Source: an uncultured Bacilli bacterium
GTDB taxonomy: Bacteria > Bacillota_I > Bacilli_A > RF39 > UBA660
Direction of reading: 5' to 3'
NCBI GenBank assembly: GCA_944329425.1
Contig: CALVIG010000004.1
Location: forward strand, 59,323 to 91,322
DNA length: 32,000 nt
Made by a program: the position numbers and the translations under genes. Of this stretch, positions 9,010 to 24,924 are shown in pieces; position 1 is the stretch's first letter, and each line of letters opens with the position of its first letter. The notes below the pieces were generated by a model. The model was not told the DNA's origin, ran no database searches, and saw only the letters and a list, made by a program, of their open reading frames with translations.

Positions 9010-9942
9010 TTAATTTCTTTTTCTTATGTTATCAGCTAATTGTTTTATTTTTCTAAATCTATGATTTAAGCATGATTTACTTATCTTACTACCAGTCTCA
9101 ATCGTCATAATATTACTTAATTCCAATAATGATGATTCCGGATACTTTTCTCTATAAACAGCACTTTCTTTTATTTTATCATCAAGTAAATCAAACATAT
9201 CATTTTCTTTTATAAGGTTAATGTCGTTTATAAGTTTGTTTGATGTTGCCATGGTTTTTTCAACGTTAGCCTGTTCACAATTATTAAGTCTGTTAGTCAT
9301 GTTTATCTTTTCGCGAAAAACCCTTATCTCCTCATAATACATAACTCCGTTATAAGCCCTAATAAGTCTTAAAAAGTCACTTATTTTTTCTGCTTCTTTA
9401 ACGTATATCATATAACCCTTTTTTCGGTGAAGTATTTTACTATTAAGTCCATTATCATTAAGTAAATTGTTTAAAAATTTAGAATATTCAGTATCACCGA
9501 TTAAAAATTCCAAATGATACCTTGAAGTTTTTGGATCATTCAAACTACCACTAACCAAAAAAACGCCTCTTAAATAAGCTCTTTTTAGTTCCTCATCAGA
9601 TAATAAAGACTCACTAGGTATTCTAAGAAGTTGATTTTTTTCGTTTATGATTCCAAGGTCTCTTAGTACTTTTAAAGTATCTTTTTTTAATTCTAATACG
9701 TAAATTTCGTTTTTCTTAAAATTATAGTTTTTTCTAAGAGTAATATTCAAATTTATGTCATAAAGAATTTTAAATAATCCAAAAATTCTGTTTGCCACAA
9801 ATTTATTTTCTGTTTGAATTTTTATATTATATATTTTGATTTCAGCATTTGTTCTAATAATACCAGATAACTCGGATAAGTATTCAGCACGCGTACATTC
9901 AGTTGTACTTATTTCTTTTTTTATTTTACTAGAAAACGTCAT
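9010..9942 (-). CDS. whiA: DNA-binding protein WhiA
   Basis: About 310 aa. MTFSSKIKKEI... start with a GAAGGTGA RBS. LAGLIDADG-like core (YLRGVFLVSGSLNDP) and a C-terminal HTH. Confidence 0.85.
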   Translation of the reverse strand: MTFSSKIKKEISTTECTRAEYLSELSGIIRTNAEIKIYNIKIQTENKFVANRIFGLFKILYDINLNITLRKNYNFKKNEIYVLELKKDTLKVLRDLGIINEKNQLLRIPSESLLSDEELKRAYLRGVFLVSGSLNDPKTSRYHLEFLIGDTEYSKFLNNLLNDNGLNSKILHRKKGYMIYVKEAEKISDFLRLIRAYNGVMYYEEIRVFREKINMTNRLNNCEQANVEKTMATSNKLINDINLIKENDMFDLLDDKIKESAVYREKYPESSLLELSNIMTIETGSKISKSCLNHRFRKIKQLADNIRKRN

Positions 9943-13389: not shown

Positions 13390-16209
13390 TTAATTTATTT
13401 TTAATATTTCTTTTAAATACGCTCCAGTATATGAAGGTTTACACTTAGCAATTTGTTCTGGTGTTCCCTCACAAACTATGGTTCCACCTTCATCTCCGCC
13501 TTCAGGGCCTAAATCAATTATATGATCCGCAACTTTTATAACGTCTAAATTATGTTCAATAACTATTACCGTGTCGCCATTATCAACTATTCTATTTAAT
13601 ATTACAAGTAATTTTTTTATGTCATCACTATGAAGTCCAGTTGTTGGTTCATCTAGAATAAAGATGCTTTTACCCGTTGGCTTTTTTTGTAATTCTTTAG
13701 CTAGCTTAACCCTTGAAGCCTCGCCTCCAGATAAAGTAGGAGCACTTTGACCAAGTTTAATATAGCCAAGCCCAACGTCAATTAAAACTTGTAACTTTCG
13801 TTTTATTTTTGGATGGTTTTCAAAGAAAGTAACAGCTTCTTCTACCCTCATTTGTAATACATCGTATATTGTTTTTCCTTTGTATTTTACCTCTAACGTT
13901 TCTTTATTAAATCTGGTGCCACCACAAACCTCACATGGTACATATACATCTGGTAAAAAGTTCATGGATATTTTTTTTACTCCATCACCCCAACAAGCTT
14001 CGCATCTTCCTCCTTTTACGTTAAAAGAAAACCTTCCTTTATCATATCCCCTTATTTTAGCTTCCTTTGTTTGTGCAAAAACATCCCTAATATCATCAAA
14101 CACACCTACATAAGTTGCTGGATTACTTCTAGGAGTTCTTCCTATCGGATCTTGAGTTATGTCTATTACTTTATCAACGTTTTCCAATCCTTTTATACTT
14201 TTATGTTTTCCTGGTACAACTTTAGATCCATAAACGTTTAATGCCAGTGCTTTATAAAGTATTTGATTAACTAAACTTGATTTACCACTACCTGATACAC
14301 CCGTTACAACAATAAATTTACCAAGAGGAAACTTAACGTTTATGTTTTTTAAATTATTTTCCTTGGCTCCCTTTATCTCAATATATTTGCCATTCCCTTT
14401 TCTTCTTTTTTTAGGAACTTCTATTCGTTTTCTTCCGCTTAAATAGTCTCCAGTTATACTGTTAGTATTTTGCATAACTTCACTTGGTGTTCCACATGCT
14501 ACTATTTCTCCTCCATGGTCTCCAGCTCCCGGCCCAACATCAACTAAGTAATCCGCCTGAAGCATAGTATCCGTATCATGTTCAACTACTATAAGGGTAT
14601 TACCTAAATCCCTCATCTTTATTAAAGAATCTATTAATCTTTGGTTATCTCTTTGATGAAGCCCAATGCTTGGTTCGTCAAGAACGTATAAAACCCCTGT
14701 TAATTGAGAACCTATTTGCGTTGCAAGTCTTATTCTTTGAGCCTCTCCTCCAGATAATGTTCCAGCACTTCTGGATAAGGTTAAATACCCAAGACCAACG
14801 TTATGCAAAAATTCTAACCTTGATTTTATCTCTTTAATTAAAAGTCTAGCTATTTCTTCTTTTTCCTTAGTTAATTTTAGTTTATCAAAGAAGTCATATA
14901 ATTTATCTATGTTCATATCAGTTAAATCAATGATGTTCTTTTTGTTAATTAACACGGATAGAACGCTTGGTTTAAGCCTTTTTCCATGACAAATAGGGCA
15001 AGTAAGTTCCACCATGTATTTTCCAAGCCATTCTCTTATAAATTCACTATTAGTTTCAAAATAACGTCTTTCAAGGTTATTTAAAACTCCTTCATAAGGC
15101 TCATAACTATTCATCTGGTTACCACTTCTTGTTTTAAACTTAAACTCAATAGGTTCCTTGGTACCTCTAAGAATTATATCTAACTCTTTTTTCGTAAAAT
15201 CCTTCATTTTTTTATTCATGTCTATGTTATATTTATCACAAACAATTTCTAGTTTTTTTATATAAATATTTTGATCATCCATGCCTGCTAGTGGTTCTAT
15301 ACCGCCTCTTGCAAGAGTTTTTTCTTTATCTGGAATTATTAAATCTTCGCTTATTTTTTGCTTAAAACCTAATCCTTTACAATCTGGACATGAGCCATAA
15401 GGGGCATTAAAAGAGAACATTCTAGGTTCTAATTCTTCTAAAGAAAAATCACAATGAGGACACGCAAAAGACTCACTCATAACGATTTCTTTGCTACCTG
15501 GAATTTCTACTACAGCTTTACCTTTAGACAATTTACAAGCAACTTCTATAGCCTCATAAATTCTGCTTCTTGATTCTTCTTTCTTTATTATTCTATCTAT
15601 TACTACTAAAATATTATGTTTTTTATTTTTATCTAAGTTAATTTCTTCACTTAGATCTTTTACTTCATCATCTATTTTTATCCTTACGTAACCATCTTTC
15701 CTTAAATTATCCATCAAATCCTTAAACGTTCCTTTTTGCCCATAAACTACCGGAGACATAATTATTAATTTTGTACCATCGGCTTCATTCATTATTTGGG
15801 TTGTCATTTCCTCTATTGATTGACTAACTATAGGAATATTGTGATTAGGGCAATAAGGCACGCCAATACGAGCGTACAAAAGTCTTAAGTAATCATATAT
15901 TTCAGTTACGGTACCAACCGTTGACCTTGGGTTATTATTAGTCGTTTTTTGATCTATCGAAATAGATGGACTAAGGCCTTCTATCGAATCAACGTCTGGT
16001 TTTGTTGTACCACCTAAAAATTGCCTTGCATAAGCTGACAAACTCTCAACGTATCTTCTTTGGCCTTCAGCATATATCGTATCAAAAGCAAGCGATGATT
16101 TTCCACTTCCTGATACTCCAGTCATAACCGTTAATTTATTTTTAGGTATTTCTATATTTATATTTTTTAAATTGTTTTCCCTAGCACCTTTTACTATAAT
16201 CTTATCCAT
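13390..16209 (-). CDS. uvrA: excinuclease ABC subunit A
   Basis: Two ABC modules (GVSGSGKSSL twice, LSGGE twice) and zinc-finger Cys clusters. ATG at 16207-16209 with an AAAGGTGA RBS. Confidence 0.97.
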   Translation of the reverse strand: MDKIIVKGARENNLKNINIEIPKNKLTVMTGVSGSGKSSLAFDTIYAEGQRRYVESLSAYARQFLGGTTKPDVDSIEGLSPSISIDQKTTNNNPRSTVGTVTEIYDYLRLLYARIGVPYCPNHNIPIVSQSIEEMTTQIMNEADGTKLIIMSPVVYGQKGTFKDLMDNLRKDGYVRIKIDDEVKDLSEEINLDKNKKHNILVVIDRIIKKEESRSRIYEAIEVACKLSKGKAVVEIPGSKEIVMSESFACPHCDFSLEELEPRMFSFNAPYGSCPDCKGLGFKQKISEDLIIPDKEKTLARGGIEPLAGMDDQNIYIKKLEIVCDKYNIDMNKKMKDFTKKELDIILRGTKEPIEFKFKTRSGNQMNSYEPYEGVLNNLERRYFETNSEFIREWLGKYMVELTCPICHGKRLKPSVLSVLINKKNIIDLTDMNIDKLYDFFDKLKLTKEKEEIARLLIKEIKSRLEFLHNVGLGYLTLSRSAGTLSGGEAQRIRLATQIGSQLTGVLYVLDEPSIGLHQRDNQRLIDSLIKMRDLGNTLIVVEHDTDTMLQADYLVDVGPGAGDHGGEIVACGTPSEVMQNTNSITGDYLSGRKRIEVPKKRRKGNGKYIEIKGAKENNLKNINVKFPLGKFIVVTGVSGSGKSSLVNQILYKALALNVYGSKVVPGKHKSIKGLENVDKVIDITQDPIGRTPRSNPATYVGVFDDIRDVFAQTKEAKIRGYDKGRFSFNVKGGRCEACWGDGVKKISMNFLPDVYVPCEVCGGTRFNKETLEVKYKGKTIYDVLQMRVEEAVTFFENHPKIKRKLQVLIDVGLGYIKLGQSAPTLSGGEASRVKLAKELQKKPTGKSIFILDEPTTGLHSDDIKKLLVILNRIVDNGDTVIVIEHNLDVIKVADHIIDLGPEGGDEGGTIVCEGTPEQIAKCKPSYTGAYLKEILKIN

Positions 16210-16263
16210 ATACATCACCTTTTCTAATAATAATTCTAACACAAAAAAGTAATTTAATAACTT

Positions 16264-17181
16264 TTATTTTCTTTTGTTAGGTTTATAGTAAGTAATTGTC
16301 ATACCATGCGATTGTTTCTCAAAAAAGCAGCTTTTATTAGCATCAACAAACCTAGTATCAAGGCCTCTTTTTCCTATGTTAAAATCATTATTATTACGTT
16401 TTTTTACACCGTAACCCGCCTGAATCAAACCCCTGCAAGTAAGCTTTAGCTCTAACTGTTTTAATAATTTTAAAAATTTTTCTAATTCGCATTTACTAAA
16501 ATAACTACTTATATTAGAAAACACCATTGCAGAATATTTTTCATCTCCAAGATTTTTGTTTAAATCAAAGATATTACAGTCAACAAAATCTACCGAAGTC
16601 AATTTTTTCATATTTTCTTGTAATTTCTCATAGTTTTTACGTGTTAAATAACCTGATAATTTTGGATAATGTTTGACGTTTATTAAATTAAATTTTTCAC
16701 AAATAGTAGCGTTAATCATAACATCAAAAAGCAACTCAAAAAAAAGTGCAACAGTATTTTCTAAATTAGAACATACTTTTTCGTATAAATACGTATCTAC
16801 GTTTGTTAAAAAACCACCTGCTACATAATTAGAAAAGGGTTTATTAATTTTATATAGCTTTATAAATTCATCATACGATAAGCATGATACCGCGGAAAAT
16901 TTAAACAATGCAAAATATTTTGCTAATTTATTAATATCAAACATCTTAACGTTTTTAGCACCTTTTAAAATTGCCATTAAAGCTTGATCACCCGAGCCAG
17001 TCACCGTAAGAATACCTTGAGTAACATCTAACGGTTCAAAAATATCTTTTAGCCTATCATTAGTAAATAGATAAATATTATCGTAAGTGGAAAAGTATGA
17101 TGGAGTCGAATCATTTCCAACTTTCATTAATCCTTTTAATTGCATAAAATCATTATCAACGTCATTCCTTGTGATATTCAT
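16264..17181 (-). CDS. DUF3419-like (BtaA C-terminal-domain-like) SAM-dependent methyltransferase-fold protein
   Basis: ILTVTGSGDQALMAILKGAKNVKMFDINKLAKYFALFKFSAVSCLSYDEFIKLY resembles the DUF3419 N-terminal block (SxGxNaL...V.aVDlNp.Q..LleLK...L.yeeF). Only 21 nt upstream of uvrA. Confidence 0.5.
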   Translation of the reverse strand: MNITRNDVDNDFMQLKGLMKVGNDSTPSYFSTYDNIYLFTNDRLKDIFEPLDVTQGILTVTGSGDQALMAILKGAKNVKMFDINKLAKYFALFKFSAVSCLSYDEFIKLYKINKPFSNYVAGGFLTNVDTYLYEKVCSNLENTVALFFELLFDVMINATICEKFNLINVKHYPKLSGYLTRKNYEKLQENMKKLTSVDFVDCNIFDLNKNLGDEKYSAMVFSNISSYFSKCELEKFLKLLKQLELKLTCRGLIQAGYGVKKRNNNDFNIGKRGLDTRFVDANKSCFFEKQSHGMTITYYKPNKRK

Positions 17182-17299: not shown

Positions 17300-19255
17300 C
17301 TAATTAACCTTCATCTCGAATATGATGTCACGAAGTTCCATAGCGCGCTCAAAATCCAATTCTTTAGCAGCTTTTTGCATTTCTTCTTCCAGCTGTTTAA
17401 TTAATTTATCATTGTTAATTTCTTCACGTTTTGGGCGTTTTTTATTAGCAGAAGAATCATCATCGTTTATACTTACAACATCCATTATTTTCTTTTTTAT
17501 TGTTTTAGGAACGATATTATGTTCCTTATTATATTTAACTTGAATCGCACGTCTTCTTTGTGTTTCTTCAATTGCGGTTTTCATGGCATCACTTATTATA
17601 TCACCATACATTATAACCCTACCATCAGAGTTCCTTGCACACCTTCCGATGGTTTGAATAAGACTTCTATGACTTCTTAAGAAGCCTTGTTTATCGGCAT
17701 CTAAAATAGCCACTAAGCTAACCTCAGGGATATCAAGTCCCTCACGGAGCAAATTAATTCCAACCAGAACATCATATTTTCCAGTTCTTAAATCATGTAT
17801 AATTCTAAGTCGTTCTAAAGTTTTTACCTCACTATGTAAATAAGCAACTTTAATGTTTAAATCTTTTAAGTAAGAAGTTAATTCTTCTGCCATGCGAATC
17901 GTTAAAGTAGTAACTAAAGTCCTATCACCTTTTTTTATTTGTTTTTGAATTTCTTCTATTAAATCATCAATTTGATTATTGGACTTTCTAACCTCAATTA
18001 AAGGATCTAATAATCCAGTTGGCCTTATTATCTGTTCAATAACCTCATTGTTTACCTTTTGCAATTCTTCGTCTCCTGGTGTTGCAGAAACGTATATTAC
18101 TTGATTTATTTTTTTCTCAAACTCCTCGTACCTCAAAGGTCTATTATCTAAAGCACTTGGTAACCTAAACCCATAATCAACAAGCATCTGTTTTCTGTTT
18201 CGGTCTCCATTATACATTGCTTTTACCTGAGGTAACGTTACGTGTGATTCATCTATAACCATAAGATAATCTTTAGGGAAGAAATCTAAAAGACAAGTAG
18301 GAGTGGCTCCTTCTGGTTTTAACGCTAAATGTCTTGAATAATTTTCAACCCCAGAGCAAAAACCAGTTTCTGCAAGCATTTCCAAGTCATACTTACACCT
18401 TCCTTCCAGGCGTTCAGCTTCTAATAGTTTTCCATTTTCCCTAAAATATTTTAATCTATCATCCAATTCTTCTTTTATATTAATAATAGCTTTCTTTAAT
18501 TTTTCTTCACTGGTTACGAAATGAGAGGCCGGCATGATTGATATTATTTTTTTATCATTTATAACAACACCCGTTAATACATCAAATAAAGAAATTCTAT
18601 CTATTTCATCTCCAAACAATTCTATTCTTATGCCATGACTTTTTTCATAAACCGGAATAACCTCGATCACGTCACCTTTTGCTCTAAAAGTTCCTCTCGC
18701 TAAGTCAATATTATTTCTTTCATACATCATATCCACTAATTTACTTAGTATATTGTTTCTATCTATTGTTTGGCCAACCTCTAAAGTAAGCATCTGGTGT
18801 TCATATTCTTCTTTATCACCAATTCCGTATATACAGGAAACAGATGCCACTACTATTACATCTTTGTAGTTTATCAAAGAACTTGTAGCAAAGTGTCTTA
18901 ATTCATCTATTTCATCATTTATAGATGAGTCTTTTTCAATGTAAGTATCACTTGAAGGAACGTATGCTTCAGGCTGATAATAATCGTAGTACGAAACAAA
19001 GTAACAAACGTGATTGTTTGGAAAGATTTCCTTTAGCTCTGAGTACAACTGGCCCGCTAGCGTTTTGTTGTGTGCTAAAACTAGTGTAGGCTTGTTTACT
19101 TCTTTAATTACGTTTGCTATTGTAAATGTTTTACCAGTACCCGTTGCCCCTAGTAAAACCTGGTATTTCTTACCATCTTTTATCCCATCAGAAAGCTCTT
19201 TTATTGCTTCTGGCTGATCGCCTGATGGTTTAAATTTAGACACTAAATCAAACAT
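17300..19255 (-). CDS. uvrB: excinuclease ABC subunit B (intact)
   Basis: [18 protein letters not shown] start (ATG 19253-19255, GGAGG RBS), Walker [13 protein letters not shown] box, helicase motifs and a C-terminal UVR domain. The ORF-track start at 19306 is too far upstream. Confidence 0.97.
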
Positions 19256-19301
19256 TTTGTCCTCCTTACTATGATTACTATCAACCTCAAAAATTCGTAT
19301 T

Positions 19302-19315
19302 TTCAAAATTTTGAA
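19302..19315. promoter_or_regulatory. 14-bp perfect palindrome TTCAAAATTTTGAA upstream of intact uvrB (candidate operator; contains a TTGAAA -35-like hexamer on the minus strand)
   Basis: Read directly from the sequence. Lies 47-60 nt upstream of the uvrB ATG. Confidence 0.3.
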
Positions 19316-19343
19316 GTTTGGCTGATACGTGCCGAAAACACTA

Positions 19344-19368
19344 AAATACGCCTCTCGGCCACAAATTT
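19344..19368 (+). repeat. left copy of the island-flanking direct repeat AAATACGCCTCTCGGCCACAAATTT
   Basis: 23/25 identical to 23644..23668. Preceded by CTGATACG and followed by TAAATAACACTAAT (19371..19384), which recurs inverted at 23680..23693. Confidence 0.7.
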
Positions 19369-19548
19369 AATAAATAACACTAATTAACATGAAATAAACC
19401 TTATTAATCTATTCTAACACTTATTTTATAAGGAATCAACAAGGTTTACTAATTTTGATTTAGACGATTTTTAGGCTGTTTTTATATATCTCTTCGCAAT
19501 CAAATTCGTATCCAACTTTTATCTTGTCGTTAAAATAATAATTTCACC

Positions 19549-19581
19549 TCAAAAAAAATGCAAAATATCAAATTGCATTTT
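19549..19581 (-). terminator. rho-independent terminator closing the island operon
   Basis: aaaatgcaa (19555..19563) pairs with ttgcatttt (19573..19581) across a 9-nt loop, followed by T8 on the minus strand. Confidence 0.65.
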
Positions 19582-19606
19582 TCTTATATATTAATTATGA
19601 TAATAT

Positions 19607-20164
19607 TCATTCATTAACAGAACATTCTTCACATTCAGAAGTTTTTAGAGAACATCTCATATATAATTGATTACCACGAAAAGCTGTTTGCCCTTCAAAA
19701 TAGACATAACCATTTTTTACATCTTTAATCTTTGTACCATACATTACAACTTTTTCTGACAAATCTTTTTTCTTTGTATTACCTCCATCTAATGTATACT
19801 CATACACAACTGAACCGAATAATCTAGTAATATATAACTTATCTACAGAAAAATAATTTTGATCTTCAAATTTATAATCGTCTGGACCTGAAGAGTCAAA
19901 CTCATCAAGTTTAATATAATCATTATCAGAAACTTTATAAAACAACCCATTTATCGCTACTTCACTACCTTCTGGAGTAATATCAGTAACCACATAAGTT
20001 TCTTCTTGTTTTGTCTTATCATTTACAATTTGATAACTCATAGTTTTTGTATCTCTATCATTCAAATCATAATGTTCAAAATTTTCATATTCATTATTAC
20101 TCTTATCAAAAATACAGCCACAAACACAAACAGTTAAAATAAAAATTAATAATATTCTTTTCAT
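19607..20164 (-). CDS. putative lipoprotein (185 aa from the ATG at 20164)
   Basis: MKRILLIFILTVCVCGC is a signal peptide with a lipobox-like VCGC. GAGG RBS 6 nt upstream of the ATG. No recognisable domain; the C-terminus is Cys-rich. Confidence 0.6.
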   Translation of the reverse strand: MKRILLIFILTVCVCGCIFDKSNNEYENFEHYDLNDRDTKTMSYQIVNDKTKQEETYVVTDITPEGSEVAINGLFYKVSDNDYIKLDEFDSSGPDDYKFEDQNYFSVDKLYITRLFGSVVYEYTLDGGNTKKKDLSEKVVMYGTKIKDVKNGYVYFEGQTAFRGNQLYMRCSLKTSECEECSVNE

Positions 20165-20187
20165 ACTTAACCTCACTTAATATTTAT

Positions 20188-20466
20188 TTAATAATATAAT
20201 TCTTTTGGAACATCTTTTTCTTCTATATATTTAACCGTTGATAAATCTAAACTTATTCTTGCATAAAATTCATCTGCAACATAAGTATATTGATAATAAA
20301 TAAAACCATTACAAAATCCTAAAACTCTATTCATTCTTCCTGGAGTACCATTAAATAATGACGAACTATTGTGATCTATTATTTTTCCGGTAGACAAATC
20401 GTATGATTTAACATCAAAGTTTAATATATATAATAGAATCAAGTTGTTTAACTTACTTCCAATCAT
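20188..20466 (-). CDS. small hypothetical protein (92 aa from the ATG at 20466; the ORF track extends to a TTG at 20505); possibly a gene fragment
   Basis: ORF only, with no convincing RBS. The sequence is beta-strand-rich (GFCNGFIYYQYTYVADEFYARISLDL). Confidence 0.35.
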   Translation of the reverse strand: MIGSKLNNLILLYILNFDVKSYDLSTGKIIDHNSSSLFNGTPGRMNRVLGFCNGFIYYQYTYVADEFYARISLDLSTVKYIEEKDVPKELYY

Positions 20467-20534
20467 GGATAGATACCATTTATACAGATTTTCTTGTGCT
20501 CTCAAAACTCGTAAAAATCACAAGGCTTACTTTT

Positions 20535-20933
20535 TTATTTTTTATTTAAATCAATTTTTATTTCCTCTAATATATGGCCTATATTTCCTTCCCCCGCATA
20601 TTTGCTCATATCAAAGAAGTCATCACTAGCACTCACCCATTCTAATTTATTAACCTCTTCAACCAACTGGACATCCTTATTCAATATTCCATAATATACT
20701 TCTAATTCTTTATTCCATTTAACATAAACAATGTCCATAAAGTAAGTTAAATCAATATCACTTTTATGAATATTAGTTTCTTCTTCCAACTCTCTATAAG
20801 CCTCATTTAGGCCATCGTCAGGAACCTCTATTTTTCCACCAACCAAATTATACATACCTTTATATGGTTCTTTTGTTCTTTTACACATCAAAGTTTTACT
20901 CAAATCTTTGTTAAAAACTACTATTACGTTCAT
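20535..20933 (-). CDS. Nudix hydrolase (ATG at 20933; the ORF-track TTG is at 20942)
   Basis: Nudix box at 20769..20837: GKIEVPDDGLNEAYRELEEETNI, i.e. G-x5-D-x7-REL-x-EE-x-N-I, slightly degenerate relative to GX5EX7REUXEEXGU. Confidence 0.75.
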   Translation of the reverse strand: MNVIVVFNKDLSKTLMCKRTKEPYKGMYNLVGGKIEVPDDGLNEAYRELEEETNIHKSDIDLTYFMDIVYVKWNKELEVYYGILNKDVQLVEEVNKLEWVSASDDFFDMSKYAGEGNIGHILEEIKIDLNKK

Positions 20934-20996
20934 CTTTTTCAAGTTTAATCAACTCATGTACATTTTAACATAAAAACATGACAAAATTAACTATGT

Positions 20997-22847
20997 TTAC
21001 TTAATAACTTTAATTATTTCATTTTTCAAATGTTCTCTTAACGGCTCGTCATCACAGTATATATAGCAACCTTTGATACCTCTAGTCAACAAAACTCTAT
21101 ACGTATTTTTAATTAAAGTGTCAGCAATATTATCAGCCTTTTTATAATTTTGCTTATATAACTTTTTTATACCCTTAAATGACGGATCAGCTGATCCGTG
21201 ACCAAAAAAATCACTTACTACTTTCCCATCGCGATATTTCAAATCACTTCCTATTATTACTCCTACATAATCAAACTCTAACCCTTGTACAGAATGAATA
21301 CATCCCGCTTCATTTATTGAATCATCAATTGCGAATGTTTGACCTTGACCTAAATTCCAACTCATCTCAAAGTCTTTTATAACAATATCATGAAAATCAG
21401 GATTATTGATTTCCTTTTTATTCCAATTCCAACAATATCCAGCTACGACTCTCGATAAATCAGTTTTATTTTTTTCTTTTATTAATCTAACAAGTTCTTG
21501 AGGACTATCAATAATTTTTAAATCATAATTAATATTTGCACCATTATACAAATCATTTATTCCCAAAAGATAATCAACAAAATTGATATAATCATTAGAA
21601 TTATTGCACCTGAATTGAGATTCAAGATTTAGAATATGAACTTTCGAATTTAAATCTTGAGAAAATTTTTTAATATTTTCTATTGTTCCAATATCATTAA
21701 AATGAACTCTTTGATTTTCATCTATAAAGAAAACAGAAGTCTTTGAAGAATTTATAATCTCTTTAATTTGGTTTTCGCCATAATTATTAAACAAACCGGA
21801 TTTTTCAGTCAAACAATGTGCCTCATCAACAAGTAAAACATCAAAAATATTTTTATCTGTTTCGGTATAGCTCCCTGACGATTTAAACAGATTATCAATA
21901 CTACTTTTTTTCATATTTCCCTTTAACTTAAATGAATATATTACACGCGGAGCAGTATTTCTAGAAACATATTGGCATAATTTTCTTTTATTAATAAAAT
22001 AATTCAATAAATTAATAGCAATTACAGATTTTCCGGTTCCAGGATTTCCTTTGACAATAATAGTACTTTTTTCTTCGCTTTCTTCTGCCAATACTATTTT
22101 ACTAAAAGCCTCCATTTGTTCATCGATCAGCGTAAAATAATCATTATTAACTATTAAACTATTAATTTTTTCTTGTAATTTAGGAGATGGAGTCATAGTA
22201 GAATTATCGATGTTACTTATAATAACTCCATTATCTCCTTTTGATAAATTACCCTCAATATATTTTTTTAATTCTGTTTCATTATTTTTTCCGAAAATCT
22301 CAACTTCTTTATTAAACGTGTCAAACTTTTCATTCAACAAAACATCATTTTTTTCCAAATCATAATTGTGCAATAAAACCGCTAGAGAAACAGATATTTC
22401 ATTATCCTGAATATAAGTATTAAAATCTTTTAACAATTGTCCATACGACCATACCTGATAACCCGGATGCAAAACCTGTCTTAATCCGCCGTTAATAAAT
22501 GTCTCAACTAAATAATCACTACTAGGAACATCATTCACTTTTTCCCATTGTTTCAATTCAAAAACAATTAATTTTTCCTTATTGTTTTTATCATAGCCTG
22601 ATAATATCAAGTCAATCCGATTAGAAGTCATTGGCAAGTTATATTCAAGTGTAATAGCACAATTTTCATCTAAATTACATTCATTAAGAATTTTTGAAAA
22701 ATAGTTTAATGAGGAATTCCATGATTCAATCTCTGATTTTCCAGAGAATTTAAACATTTTTTTCTTTATCAAATCATTTAAGATTTTAGATATTCCAAAA
22801 CTAATGTCTCTGTTAAACTCTTTTATATTCTTACTATATATAATCAT
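20997..22847 (-). CDS. DUF2075-type protein: N-terminal PD-(D/E)xK-like nuclease module plus P-loop NTPase plus UvrD_C-like helicase C-terminal module
   Basis: ATG at 22847 with an AGGTGG RBS. Nuclease-like motif E..LP....RIDLIL (D at 22611..22613) and IVFELKQW (E-x-K at 22551..22559). Walker A GNPGTGKS (22026..22049). Walker B LLVDEAH (21816..21827). IHSVQGLEFDYVGVIIG (21270..21299). Confidence 0.75.
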   Translation of the reverse strand: MIIYSKNIKEFNRDISFGISKILNDLIKKKMFKFSGKSEIESWNSSLNYFSKILNECNLDENCAITLEYNLPMTSNRIDLILSGYDKNNKEKLIVFELKQWEKVNDVPSSDYLVETFINGGLRQVLHPGYQVWSYGQLLKDFNTYIQDNEISVSLAVLLHNYDLEKNDVLLNEKFDTFNKEVEIFGKNNETELKKYIEGNLSKGDNGVIISNIDNSTMTPSPKLQEKINSLIVNNDYFTLIDEQMEAFSKIVLAEESEEKSTIIVKGNPGTGKSVIAINLLNYFINKRKLCQYVSRNTAPRVIYSFKLKGNMKKSSIDNLFKSSGSYTETDKNIFDVLLVDEAHCLTEKSGLFNNYGENQIKEIINSSKTSVFFIDENQRVHFNDIGTIENIKKFSQDLNSKVHILNLESQFRCNNSNDYINFVDYLLGINDLYNGANINYDLKIIDSPQELVRLIKEKNKTDLSRVVAGYCWNWNKKEINNPDFHDIVIKDFEMSWNLGQGQTFAIDDSINEAGCIHSVQGLEFDYVGVIIGSDLKYRDGKVVSDFFGHGSADPSFKGIKKLYKQNYKKADNIADTLIKNTYRVLLTRGIKGCYIYCDDEPLREHLKNEIIKVIK

Positions 22848-22849
22848 AT

Positions 22850-23476
22850 TTACCACCTGTTTAAAATTTTATTTTTATCAACACAGTTATACGTCAAATA
22901 TTCACCAGTTATAAATTTACTATCATTAAAGCGTTTCATTACAACATCATTAAATTCTAAGCTCCAATCCTCATCCGAATAATTAAGGATTTTTTGATAA
23001 GTACCTATACTTTTCAAATAATTCAAATACATTTCATAAGTATTAAACGTCATTAAAAAATTATTTCTAGAAGCAGACATTGCATAAAGTCCAGCCTCGC
23101 TTACTATTTCGTCCGTCTGTTCTATACTATACCTTCCATTCAATTCGTCATCCATAAATGTTTCTTTTAAATAATTATTTCCTGGTACTGAAAATAAAAT
23201 TCTACCATCACTAGACAATAAATTTTTAGCTTTCCTTAAAGATTCAATGGGATCAGCCATATGATGCAATACATAACTAAATATTATTATATCAAATTTA
23301 CTATCAGAATCATACTTCATAAAATCTTTATTCATAAATATCGCTTTATTGTGGTTGATTTTTTCAAAACTTTTTTATGTTTTTTAATAATTAGGAATAG
23401 CATAACCATATATATACTTACTGTTTATAGAGTATTTCTTTTGTTTGAATTTATCTCTTGAATTACCCTCAAACAT
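22850..23476 (-). pseudogene. decayed class I SAM-dependent methyltransferase (Methyltransf_11/25-like)
   Basis: The 161-aa ORF (22850..23335) retains the post-motif-I part (FDIIIFSYVLHHMADPIESLRKAKNLLSSDGRILFSVPG) but has no GxGxG motif and no RBS. An in-frame upstream ATG at 23476 (MFEGNSRDKF...) is cut by two TAA stops (23384..23386 and 23375..23377). Confidence 0.6.
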
Positions 23477-23643
23477 ATATACATCTCATACCTCTTTTCA
23501 ATCTTTTTGGAAAAGAAAAAACATATAAAAAATTACATGTTATTGGAAATATAATTTAAACACCTGGATACGTTTTATACATAGCCGGTATCATATAAAT
23601 ATTTTAATTAATTAACAAACATATCTAATAACTGGATACGAAT

Positions 23644-23668
23644 AAATACGCCTGTCGGCCATAAATTT
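23644..23668 (+). repeat. right copy of the island-flanking direct repeat AAATACGCCTGTCGGCCATAAATTT
   Basis: 23/25 identical to 19344..19368. CTGGATACG occurs at 23632..23640 and again at 23564..23572. Confidence 0.7.
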
Positions 23669-23715
23669 CTTTTTTAACTATTAGTGTTATTTAAGTTTAA
23701 TTAAGTATTTCAACG

Positions 23716-24027
23716 TTATTTGATAACACTAAATAATAATGATTTCAATAGGTTATCATAATAAGATACAAAGTAACATACATGATTATTAGGAAATAGT
23801 TCTTTTAGTTCACTATAAAGTTGCCCCGCAAGCGTTTTATTATGAGCTAAAACAAGGGTAGGTTTATTAACTTTTTTAATAACATTTGCAATCGTAAACG
23901 TTTTTCCGGTTCCGGTGGCGCCTAACAAAACCTGATATTTTTTCTTTTCTTCAATTCCTTCAGCCAGCTTTTCTATAGCTTCTGGTTGATCACCAGACGG
24001 TTTAAAATTAGATACTAAATCAAACAT
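23716..24027 (-). pseudogene. uvrB: truncated uvrB 5' fragment (codons 1-91 plus a 12-codon unrelated tail)
   Basis: [18 protein letters not shown]...GATGTGKT...CYFVSYYD matches intact UvrB at 81/91 residues. Homology stops at 23755, then [12 protein letters not shown] and a stop. Confidence 0.9.
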
Positions 24028-24058
24028 AATATCACCTTTATAATTTTATTATTGTTTT

Positions 24059-24067
24059 ATTATATCA
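24059..24067 (-). promoter_or_regulatory. extended -10 (TGATATAAT) of the displaced uvrB promoter
   Basis: The reverse complement of attatatca reads TGATATAAT. An AAAGGTGAT RBS lies at 24031..24039 and the ATG at 24025..24027. Confidence 0.5.
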
Positions 24068-24075
24068 TACATAAT

Positions 24076-24102
24076 AAAAAAACATAAGTATGCTACTTAT
24101 GT
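24076..24102 (-). terminator. rho-independent terminator of the pilin-like gene
   Basis: acataagta (24082..24090) pairs with tacttatgt (24094..24102) across a 3-nt loop, followed by T7 on the minus strand. Confidence 0.7.
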
Positions 24103-24924
24103 TTAATTACAGTTGTTTTCTCTTGTTATTTGATTAATAGAGCATAATCCAACACCAGCATTTTTAACTATTCCACAATCAAGGTCATTAACTATACCGT
24201 CAAAATTCACGTCTGCTGATTTTAAATATGCACTACTTAGTTTATTTGCCCCAGAAGCTTGTAACTCAACTGCTGAAGTATCAAAGGAATCAATTACTCC
24301 ATCTCCATTTACATCTCCAAAGCCAACAAATTGATATTCTTTATATATTTCACCAGTTGAATCTTTTAAAATAATCTTACTTCCGGTAGCATAAATACCA
24401 TTTTTATTTTTTTCAAAACTAAGTGAACCATTTGATACTTTAAAATAAGAAGAAAAATCTGAATAGTATAATTTATTATCTATCGAATATATTAATCCAT
24501 TAGCATTATCTATAACCCCATTTTCACCTTTTAAGGTTAATGTCGGCACCTTTGATTTTTCTTCTGCGGTTATTTTGGTTCCTGATATCGCATACTTATC
24601 ATTACTAATGTCAAGATAATATGAATAACTTCCATCTGCTTCTTCTTTAACGGTTACCGTCCCTGAAACTTCTTCTTTATTATCTATATCCAAATCTTTT
24701 ACATCAACCACTTTTGGTAAGTTGTCATATTTTTCTGGCATTGATACCATTTCTAATTCAACCGCTTTAACAATGCTTTTAGCGGTTGTTTCAAACGCTG
24801 ACTTTTCAGATTTTTTTATTGCTTTATTTACTTGTTGAGTTGCAATAACCATTATAATTGCTAAAACCACAATTACTGCTAAAAGCTCTATCAAAGTAAA
24901 TCCATAAATATTTTTATTTTTCAT
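24103..24924 (-). CDS. type IV pilin/pseudopilin-like protein with a C-terminal dockerin-type module
   Basis: Prepilin class III signal MKNKNIYG|FTLIELLAVIVVLAIIM. C-terminal duplicated Ca-binding loops GDVNGDGVIDSFD and ADVNFDGIVNDLD (24148..24318). Confidence 0.75.
   Translation of the reverse strand: MKNKNIYGFTLIELLAVIVVLAIIMVIATQQVNKAIKKSEKSAFETTAKSIVKAVELEMVSMPEKYDNLPKVVDVKDLDIDNKEEVSGTVTVKEEADGSYSYYLDISNDKYAISGTKITAEEKSKVPTLTLKGENGVIDNANGLIYSIDNKLYYSDFSSYFKVSNGSLSFEKNKNGIYATGSKIILKDSTGEIYKEYQFVGFGDVNGDGVIDSFDTSAVELQASGANKLSSAYLKSADVNFDGIVNDLDCGIVKNAGVGLCSINQITRENNCN

Follow-up and report, generated by a model that had tools for sequence, protein, structure and literature searches.

A DUF2075 Nuclease-Helicase of an Uncultured Bacilli Bacterium and Its Candidate Partnership with Nucleotide Pyrophosphohydrolases

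Introduction

What does a protein that joins a nuclease to a helicase gain from a small nucleotide hydrolase encoded beside it? The question is raised by a 32,000-nucleotide stretch of DNA (the window) from an uncultured Bacilli bacterium (GenBank assembly GCA_944329425.1, contig CALVIG010000004.1, positions 59,323 to 91,322 of the forward strand), in which the gene of a 616-amino-acid (aa) protein of the DUF2075 family is followed by that of a Nudix hydrolase and preceded by a methyltransferase remnant. The original prediction, made from the letters of this DNA, had proposed a candidate anti-phage module with the Nudix enzyme as second component. The explanation that we favour, and hold with moderate confidence, is that the large protein belongs to a nuclease-helicase family with the architecture of the defence protein Nhi, that partnership with a nucleoside triphosphate (NTP) pyrophosphohydrolase has been selected in this family, and that the hydrolase would edit the deoxynucleoside triphosphate (dNTP) pool. 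The window genes are all on the minus strand, and those of the module are the following open reading frames (ORFs) and domains, where SF1B stands for helicase superfamily 1B and SAM for S-adenosylmethionine.

20997..22847 (stop codon included), minus strand: DUF2075 nuclease-helicase, 616 aa, intact ORF, PF09848
22143..22847, minus strand: predicted N-terminal PD-(D/E)xK nuclease domain, residues 1–235, from invariant residues and AlphaFold/Foldseek
20997..22142, minus strand: predicted SF1B helicase/DUF2075 core, residues 236–616, from motifs and Foldseek
20535..20942, minus strand: Nudix hydrolase, 135 aa, predicted NTP-pyrophosphohydrolase partner, PF00293, PADLOC candidate PDC-S07
22850..23356, minus strand: remnant (C-terminal ~165 residues) of a guanylate-kinase and class-I SAM-methyltransferase fusion, from tblastn against intact fusions

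The Nuclease-Helicase

The ORF of the 616-aa protein is intact, and all the motifs that had been quoted for it were found again (LEYNLPMTSNRIDLIL, IVFELKQW, GNPGTGKS, VDEAH, and IHSVQGLEFDYV). Its start is an ATG; the longest ORF reaches a GTG at 22856, yet all homologues begin with MI[IVL]YS. Alignment of 16 nuclease-helicases spanning 55–84% identity revealed that E68, D79, E97-x-K99, G267-K273, D341-E342, and Q521-V528 are invariant. The helicase motifs kept in the same alignment are Walker A GNPGTGKS, Walker B VDEAH, FFIDENQ, SQFRC, HSVQGLEFDYV, and YRVLLTRG, and the superfamily 1 (SF1) Walker A, Walker B, and motifs III–VI are invariant. In Pfam, the model PF09848 (DUF2075/SLFN-g3_helicase) is matched over its whole length (positions 1–354 of 354, protein residues 263–603) with E = 1.7e-93 and 314.2 bits against a cutoff of 24. 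NCBIfam contains no family for the protein, and PHROGs gave weak helicase matches only, which suggests that it is not a typical phage protein.

Searches of the PDB by sequence gave no usable structure: the single-sequence search returned no matches, and the profile search returned chance-level ones only, with no Schlafen (SLFN) protein among them. The fold was therefore taken from AlphaFold models and Foldseek. The whole-chain model has a pLDDT of 76.6 and a pTM of 0.75, and its helicase part was matched to the SF1B proteins DSH9, SLFN11, RecD2, nsp13, Dna2, Upf1, Dda, and Pif1, with E-values of 8e-9 to 6e-6 for DSH9, SLFN11, RecD2, Dna2, Upf1, and Dda. A separate model of residues 1–237 (pLDDT 92.6) found its best PDB matches in Card1 (E = 5.8e-4, probability 0.99), Can2, BstEII, EcoO109I, EndoMS, Shedu, and Hachiman HamA; the TM-scores of these matches are low (~0.3), so the common part is the restriction-endonuclease core only. 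With residues 1–237 resembling PD-(D/E)xK nucleases and the remainder SF1B helicases, the three-part architecture of the original prediction is borne out. The UvrD_C-like label attached to it has to be given up, and a UvrD-like helicase was rejected, as the core is Dda/RecD2/Upf1-like, that is, SF1B. Taken together, motifs and models indicate a single-chain protein with a predicted PD-(D/E)xK nuclease followed by an SF1B (DUF2075) helicase.

Comparison with 84–85% identical orthologues gave ratios of nonsynonymous to synonymous substitution (dN/dS) of 0.08–0.09 for the DUF2075 gene and 0.06–0.09 for the Nudix gene, the range reported for both genes together being ~0.06–0.14. These low ratios show that both genes are maintained by selection.

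The nuclease-helicase family is large and horizontally mobile. Among 8000 candidates scored, 7650 were homologues of the 616-aa protein, most of them 614–620 aa long, and the representatives of 50%-identity clusters numbered 554 at E ≤ 1e-30 and 2053 at E ≤ 1e-10. The spread is patchy, over Bacillota, Bacteroidota, Spirochaetota, Fibrobacterota, Pseudomonadota, Actinomycetota, methanogens, and haloarchaea at 40–50% identity, and it includes plasmids. A C-terminal LexA/UmuD-type S24 peptidase domain was present in all six tested members of 785–817 aa (P0355, P0358, P0368, P0371, P0426, P0452), while single members carry an N-terminal N6 DNA methylase (P0488) or an extra PIF1-like helicase (P0407). 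These fusions point to action on DNA and to a restriction-like logic, possibly under RecA- or single-stranded-DNA-dependent control.

An 8.3 kb segment, DUF2075 and MazG genes included, is shared at 99.6% identity between Treponema and Bacteroidaceae metagenome-assembled genomes (MAGs) (L057 2240–10585 versus L059 1–8346); either the segment crossed between phyla very recently or the binning is at fault. Tandem paralogous DUF2075 nuclease-helicases stand side by side in Oxalobacter (L067) and on a Hymenobacter plasmid (L095, 3501–7487).

The Pyrophosphohydrolase Partner

Gene neighbourhoods were compared in 80 loci out of at least 570 confirmed genome matches. The close set comprises 13 loci (L001–L009, L081–L084) at 56–99% identity to the window protein, retrieved via the DUF2075 protein and three contig look-ups, all of them from uncultured gut Bacilli/Mycoplasmatota-like MAGs. 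The distant set comprises 68 loci at 44–55% identity from Lachnospiraceae, Ruminococcus, Selenomonadales, Treponema, Bacteroidaceae, Fibrobacter, Oxalobacter, Coriobacteriia, Methanobrevibacter, and others. A further group (L085–L093) was retrieved via the Nudix protein and left out of the Nudix-neighbour frequency.

It was in the distant set that the usual partner became evident. A MazG-like gene of 101–123 aa lies within 100 nt of the DUF2075 gene and on the same strand in 48 of the 68 loci, or in 42 of the 58 for which both flanks were available. It is found downstream in 38 of the 48 and upstream in 10, often overlapping or at most 30 nt off. Its product belongs to PF12643, and the closest solved relatives are an archaeal or bacterial pyrophosphatase (E = 3e-22) and DCTPP1/RS21-C6 (E = 2e-17), which makes the latter a close sequence relative of the usual partner. 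DCTPP1 prefers 5-modified deoxycytidine triphosphates. A relaxed Nudix-box regular expression found no Nudix partner outside the close clade, bar one unrelated gene 2.4 kb away.

The same association can be read from the annotation of individual replicons. On plasmid 1 of Halalkalicoccus jeotgali a "nucleotide pyrophosphohydrolase" is directly followed by the DUF2075 gene, and a Microcystis phage record has a pyrophosphohydrolase and DUF2075 pair annotated. On a Priestia plasmid the order is restriction endonuclease, MutT, MrcB_N (type IV-like), pyrophosphohydrolase, DUF2075, and type I restriction-modification. On Bacillus thuringiensis plasmids, a 26%-identical DUF2075 relative is accompanied by an HNH protein and by a PRA-PH-type NTP pyrophosphohydrolase, the latter one gene away. 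An arrangement of this kind, with PRA-PH-type enzyme, HNH_4 endonuclease-domain protein, and DUF2075 gene, occupies 1823–5414 of L097 (B. thuringiensis pSY27.1_12); it occurs in ~69 Bacillus plasmid records and is widespread on B. thuringiensis megaplasmids.

Within the close set the position is taken by a Nudix gene, and no MazG partner was found inside this clade. The Nudix product, 73–100% identical to that of the window, is encoded on the same strand within 2.2 kb of the DUF2075 gene in 11 of the 13 loci, so that the adjacency noted in the window is conserved in its relatives. It lies directly downstream in six loci (L001–L003, L081, L082, L084) and upstream in L004–L006, L008, and L009; identity is 73–79% in L001–L006, L008, and L009. 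In L083 the contig stops 46 codons into the ORF downstream of DUF2075.

As for the Nudix gene of the window itself, it begins 54 nt past the stop codon of the nuclease-helicase, close to the gap of about 60 nt read earlier, and no terminator-like site was found in 19200..24200, in line with the earlier failure to see a convincing one. The protein matches PF00293 with E = 4.6e-8 (33.6 bits against a cutoff of 21.1). Its Nudix box, G36-x5-D42-x7-R50-E51-L52-x-E54-E55-x-N57-I58, departs from GX5EX7REUXEEXGU at two non-catalytic positions and has the REx2EE whole; the box had rightly been called slightly degenerate. The MutT (8-oxo-dGTPase) equivalogs of NCBIfam are not reached (TIGR00586, 19.5 bits against 97.9; PRK10776, 18.1 against 148), and the best PDB match is a MutT with E = 6e-4 only.

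The helicase family is thus accompanied by hydrolases of three lineages: two are all-alpha (DCTPP1-like and PRA-PH-like), and the third has the unrelated Nudix fold. This suggests functional displacement, and functional displacement in turn suggests that NTP pyrophosphohydrolase activity is what is selected beside the nuclease-helicase. The partner of the family in general is a MazG/DCTPP1-like pyrophosphohydrolase, for which Nudix is a local substitute in the gut Bacilli clade. A functional link of the nuclease-helicase to a nucleotide hydrolase is strongly supported by this comparative genomics; that part of the two-component proposal stands, while the Nudix pairing proper is limited to one clade. 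A literature search found no paper that joins DUF2075, Nhi-like, or Schlafen-helicase proteins with MazG or a nucleotide pyrophosphohydrolase.

The Kinase–Methyltransferase Fusion

The third gene of the module had been described as a decayed SAM methyltransferase. The truncation was confirmed; a restriction-modification methylase it is not, as the remnant is the C-terminal third of a guanylate-kinase/methyltransferase fusion. The ORF at 22850..23335 (161 aa) matches only the distal part of the class-I SAM-methyltransferase models of Pfam and is without motif I. Its last codons, AGG TGG TAA, stand 2 nt before the ATG of the nuclease-helicase, so that the ribosome-binding site of that gene sits within the upstream ORF, in agreement with the overlap of stop codon and ribosome-binding site that had been read there. 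When the intact 456-aa fusions of L001, L002, and L008 were aligned to the window by tblastn, only residues ~290–456 found a counterpart, at 23356..22856. As the homology ends at 23356, the SAM-binding motif I and the whole kinase domain have been lost from the window copy, whose first ~290 codons are gone.

The intact fusion is a protein of 454–461 aa with a guanylate-kinase domain (PF00625, E = 9e-25) and Methyltransf_11/12/25/31 matches, encoded directly upstream of the DUF2075 gene, 2 nt apart from it or overlapping. It was found in L001, L002 (4628–5998), L006, L008, L083, and L089–L093, with an apparently complete set of kinase motifs. The fusion family is small, with ~50 clusters of full-length proteins, is apparently confined to the gut Bacilli clade, and always stands beside the DUF2075 gene in the loci examined. 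Nudix, fusion, and DUF2075 genes travel as one block into many chromosomal contexts. In close relatives the module directly adjoins large serine recombinases (L003–L006, L008) or tyrosine integrases (L089–L093), and in L081 it lies within tandem mobilisable elements that also encode a MobL relaxase and coupling proteins of TraG type (T4CP).

In the window and in about half of the close loci (L084, L004, L005, L007, L009, L081, L082) the methyltransferase is missing, split, or cut short. Each of these has a whole nuclease-helicase gene except L009, where the gene runs off the contig end. Such damage beside an intact DUF2075 gene excludes a restriction-modification relationship, and the methyltransferase of the fusion moreover appears from its domain matches to be of the small-molecule class-I type, not a DNA methylase. 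A restriction-modification system was rejected on both counts, the class being wrong and the methyltransferase dispensable.

In L098–L100 (e.g., L098 4488–5777), a 142-aa Nudix protein 35% identical to that of the window is directly followed by a stand-alone 258-aa methyltransferase ~39% identical to the methyltransferase half of the fusion; the pair makes up a chromosomal unit that adjoins ogt/tag-type alkylation-repair genes and is without DUF2075. It suggests an older Nudix–methyltransferase functional unit.

Comparison with Known Systems

The likeness to Nhi drawn in the original prediction is apt at the level of architecture. Nhi (SERP2475) of Staphylococcus epidermidis is a validated single-gene defence in which PD-(D/E)xK nuclease and DUF2075 helicase are joined, with Dda, Upf1, and DNA2 as predicted structural neighbours (Bari et al. 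2022). Like it, the window protein carries an N-terminal PD-(D/E)xK domain and a DUF2075/SF1B core in one chain, and both families are accessory, horizontally spread, and partly plasmid-borne. The two differ in that the window protein matches neither Nhi nor AbiO among the PADLOC models (E ≤ 0.01) and is ~616 aa long against 470 positions of the Nhi model, and in that no pyrophosphohydrolase partner has been reported for Nhi. Relatives of the window protein do match AbiO and Nhi (E 1e-8 to 1e-16); the matches are partial, lie mainly in the first RecA-like domain, and cover positions ~175–430 of the 470 of the Nhi model. The family is therefore taken as a relative of Nhi within the DUF2075 superfamily and not as a member of the Nhi family. 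Nhi-like has an N-terminal nuclease and PF09848, shares no sequence identity with Nhi, and is defensive alone (Millman et al. 2022). Compared by description only, Nhi-like and the window protein are alike in architecture, and the 26%-identical relatives of the B. thuringiensis/cereus group would be the closest lead to it.

Profile searches placed the two intact proteins of the window in PF09848 and PF00293, as proposed, and matched them to the PADLOC candidates PDC-S41 and PDC-S07, with no model of a validated system among the matches. PDC-S41 is matched by the N-terminal nuclease region with 62.7 bits and E = 5e-18, the best stretch joining residues 5–287 to model positions 4–259 of 657, and relatives of the window protein match both ends of this model. 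PDC-S07 (135 positions) is matched by the Nudix protein at positions 3–110 with E = 5e-9. These matches are partial and low-scoring, which points to sister families; PADLOC lists the two candidates as unvalidated single genes and not as a pair.

Group III Schlafens (SLFN5/11/13/14) have the PF09848 helicase in common with the window protein, and SLFN11 is among its best structural matches. They carry an AlbA_2 RNase domain, whereas the N-terminus of the window protein shows a restriction-endonuclease-like fold with no Slfn/AlbA_2 match in Pfam, and a Schlafen RNase was rejected. Card1 and Can2 provide the best structural matches to residues 1–237; unlike them, the window protein has neither a CARF domain nor a CRISPR context. 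On the side of the partners, the T4 logic of gp56 dCTPase, gp42, and gp1 kinase employs the same enzyme classes as the Nudix, nucleotide kinase, and methyltransferase of the gut Bacilli clade. Phage remodelling of the dNTP pool, from NTP to nucleoside monophosphate (NMP), base modification, and re-phosphorylation, is a phage replication module, whereas the enzymes considered here neighbour a nuclease-helicase on cellular mobile islands.

Proposed Function and Alternatives

By analogy with Nhi, we infer a defence role for the nuclease-helicase family. The helicase would load on foreign DNA or replication intermediates and translocate at the expense of ATP, and the N-terminal PD-(D/E)xK nuclease would then degrade the translocated DNA. 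The hydrolase, judging by the identity of the partner, probably serves to edit the dNTP pool in the course of the conflict. It may destroy non-canonical or modified dNTPs that phages need for nuclease-resistant DNA, it may remove modified nucleotides that are released and salvaged after DNA degradation, or it may lower dNTP levels. The gut Bacilli variant would employ a Nudix enzyme, originally together with the guanylate-kinase/methyltransferase fusion.

Several observations weigh against this explanation. The dNTP-pool role of the hydrolase is drawn purely from what the partner is. The window protein matches no PADLOC model of a validated system, PDC-S41 and, for the Nudix protein, PDC-S07 being the only PADLOC models matched. 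About 28% of the distant loci are without any adjacent pyrophosphohydrolase, from which the large protein evidently can stand alone, and the distant neighbourhoods are mixed and not visibly rich in classical defence genes, the top families among 148 sampled neighbours being HNH_4 (4), integrase (3), and methyltransferases (3). Within the close clade, L007 is without Nudix. The sibling contig L084 carries the same island, 97.3% identical in nucleotides to window ~17800–24150, with DUF2075 intact at 99% aa identity, and its Nudix gene (9422–9829) has a GAA-to-TAA nonsense mutation at E54, inside the Nudix box. Finally, a near-identical Nudix (95%; 93.5% at the DNA level) is found without DUF2075 in the related genomes L085–L088, where the slot from the M23 peptidase gene to the intact uvrB holds only this gene (L085 6001–6399) and an unrelated 279-aa ORF, for which there was no Pfam match above the curated cutoff and none in PADLOC, NCBIfam, or PHROG. 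The flanking core genes of L085 are 74–81% identical to those of the window, below the 93.5% of the Nudix DNA, which suggests that the Nudix gene was recently mobile. The Nudix gene is thus dispensable or separable from the DUF2075 gene and not obligatory. Taken with the hydrolase-less distant loci, the L084 nonsense codon and the Nudix-less L007 also suggest that the hydrolase is not an essential antidote, and a toxin-antitoxin system was rejected, the hydrolase being lost while the nuclease-helicase stays whole.

Should the nuclease-helicase then act alone, as Nhi does, with Nudix and (kinase-)methyltransferase as a co-mobilised nucleotide-metabolism pair whose adjacency has no mechanistic meaning? 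The L084 nonsense codon, L007, and the 95%-identical Nudix between the M23 peptidase gene and uvrB all speak in favour, as do the homologous Nudix and methyltransferase pair next to ogt/tag-type genes in L098–L100 and the fact that Nhi and Nhi-like work as single genes. Nevertheless, three hydrolase lineages accompany the same helicase across phyla, next to it or at a distance of one gene, and unless the pairing is selected this is difficult to account for; Nudix, fusion, and DUF2075 genes have also entered many different chromosomal contexts as a single block. We regard independent action as unlikely, but as an explanation to be reckoned with.

A function in DNA repair or damage tolerance, consistent with the position beside uvrB-uvrA, is the next explanation to be considered, with a fork- or end-processing helicase-nuclease and a nucleotide-pool sanitiser of MutT/MazG type. 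House-cleaning is the classical task of MutT, MazG, and DCTPP1, a LexA/UmuD-type S24 peptidase domain forms part of some members of the family, and Dna2, RecD2, and Pif1 are among the structural neighbours; the Nudix–methyltransferase pair of L098–L100 lies near ogt/tag, and two of the 148 distant neighbours are Y-family polymerases (none by regular expression). Against these stand the patchy accessory distribution, with 40–50% identity across phyla and archaea, and a context that differs per lineage and includes recombinases and plasmids; pseudogenes are frequent, and tandem duplication is seen as well. In other members an N6 DNA methylase is part of the chain, or the gene belongs to a restriction-modification cluster, and the uvrB neighbourhood is an insertion hot spot and not an operon (see below). 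A repair module appears distinctly unlikely on this balance.

Another possibility, a long shot in our estimate, is that Nudix, kinase/methyltransferase fusion, and nuclease-helicase together form a nucleotide-editing pathway (NTP to NMP, methylation, re-phosphorylation) coupled to DNA degradation. Its product, or its target, could be a methylated guanine nucleotide that serves as an antiviral nucleotide analogue, or that signals to or licenses the nuclease-helicase. On this reading, DUF2075 nuclease-helicases with MazG, PRA-PH, or Nudix enzymes would more generally make up an unrecognised defence class in which dNTP-pool editing is mechanistically tied to DNA degradation. A selfish function of small integrative mobilisable elements (replication, transfer, or addiction, with the hydrolase as antidote or helper) is very improbable. 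In its favour, the module adjoins recombinases of the serine or tyrosine type and, in L081, genes for MobL relaxase and coupling proteins of TraG type. Against it, most distant loci have no recombinase or transfer genes within 6 kb, purifying selection has kept the gene intact where, as in the window, a remnant without recombinase is left, and loss of the hydrolase with DUF2075 intact speaks against a toxin-antidote pair.

If the favoured explanation, a selected partnership of nuclease-helicase and pyrophosphohydrolase, is true, a family of at least 554 clusters (50% identity, E ≤ 1e-30) and more than 7,600 proteins would obey one rule in bacteria and archaea alike: a nucleotide pyrophosphohydrolase is kept alongside, irrespective of the fold that provides the activity. 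Were the pairing functional, the single-protein immunity of the Nhi type would extend to DNA degradation linked with editing of the dNTP pool. In a study of 2026, MazG and a MazG-associated kinase figure among defence domains that are predicted and unvalidated. MazG-type domains, predicted to be defensive yet never validated, would gain a concrete setting.

The Island at uvrB

The surroundings of the module in the window comprise the following features.

17300..19255, minus strand: intact uvrB, right flank, full length
23716..24027, minus strand: 5' pseudo-copy of uvrB, 103 codons, left flank, from the 286-nt direct repeat
23644..23668, no strand assigned: copy of a 25-nt repeat, AAATACGCCTGTCGGCCATAAATTT, 92% identical to 19344–19368
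19344..19368, no strand assigned: second copy of the 25-nt repeat, within the leader of intact uvrB; the leader of L085 uvrB has it too
19607..20505, minus strand: two ORFs (105 aa; 189 aa with lipoprotein-like N-terminus), island cargo between Nudix and uvrB

The window copy of the module is a decayed, recombinase-less island that was inserted at the 5' end of uvrB, with the DUF2075 and Nudix genes intact; no recombinase gene was found in the window. A direct repeat of 286 nt (23755–24040 versus 18983–19268, 76% identity) marks the two flanks, and the uvrB fragment on the left shows 76% identity to the resident uvrB and the same value to that of L085. The intact uvrB shares 88.6% identity with L085 uvrB over its 5' 273 nt, and its 220-nt leader likewise resembles that of L085. 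A 25-nt repeat, AAATACGCCT(C/G)TCGGCCA(C/T)AAATTT, lies close to both ends of the inserted segment and is possibly the remnant of a recombination site; its copy at 23644..23668 follows the stop codon of the uvrB fragment ORF at a distance of 47 nt and the end of the 286-nt repeat at one of 87 nt.

The island had been thought to disrupt a DNA-repair locus. This could not be upheld, as the full-length uvrB at 17300..19255 is retained and only the 103-codon pseudo-copy lies upstream. The slot from the M23 peptidase gene to uvrB carries other cargo in related genomes, which suggests that the 5' region of uvrB is an insertion hot spot and not a disrupted locus. The 105-aa and 189-aa ORFs are absent from all related loci and had no Pfam match above the curated cutoff and none in PADLOC, NCBIfam, or PHROG. 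Promoter-like sites occur at chance level (37 found against 36.7 expected), the Rfam search (E ≤ 0.1) over 19000–24300 gave no match, and a tRNA scan of the whole window gave none.

Upstream of the uvrB fragment, in the variable slot, 24103–24924 (minus strand) codes for a 273-aa protein with PF07963, an N-terminal type IV pilin-like methylation motif, and a C-terminal dockerin type I domain (PF00404), an unusual pairing. On the other side, a 305-aa DUF3419-like protein is encoded at 16264–17181 (minus strand), between uvrB and a 950-aa ORF at 13390..16242 that can be aligned with the beginning of uvrA in L085. A DUF4190 protein occupies the position of the DUF3419-like protein in L085, which points to a second variable slot in the uvr locus.

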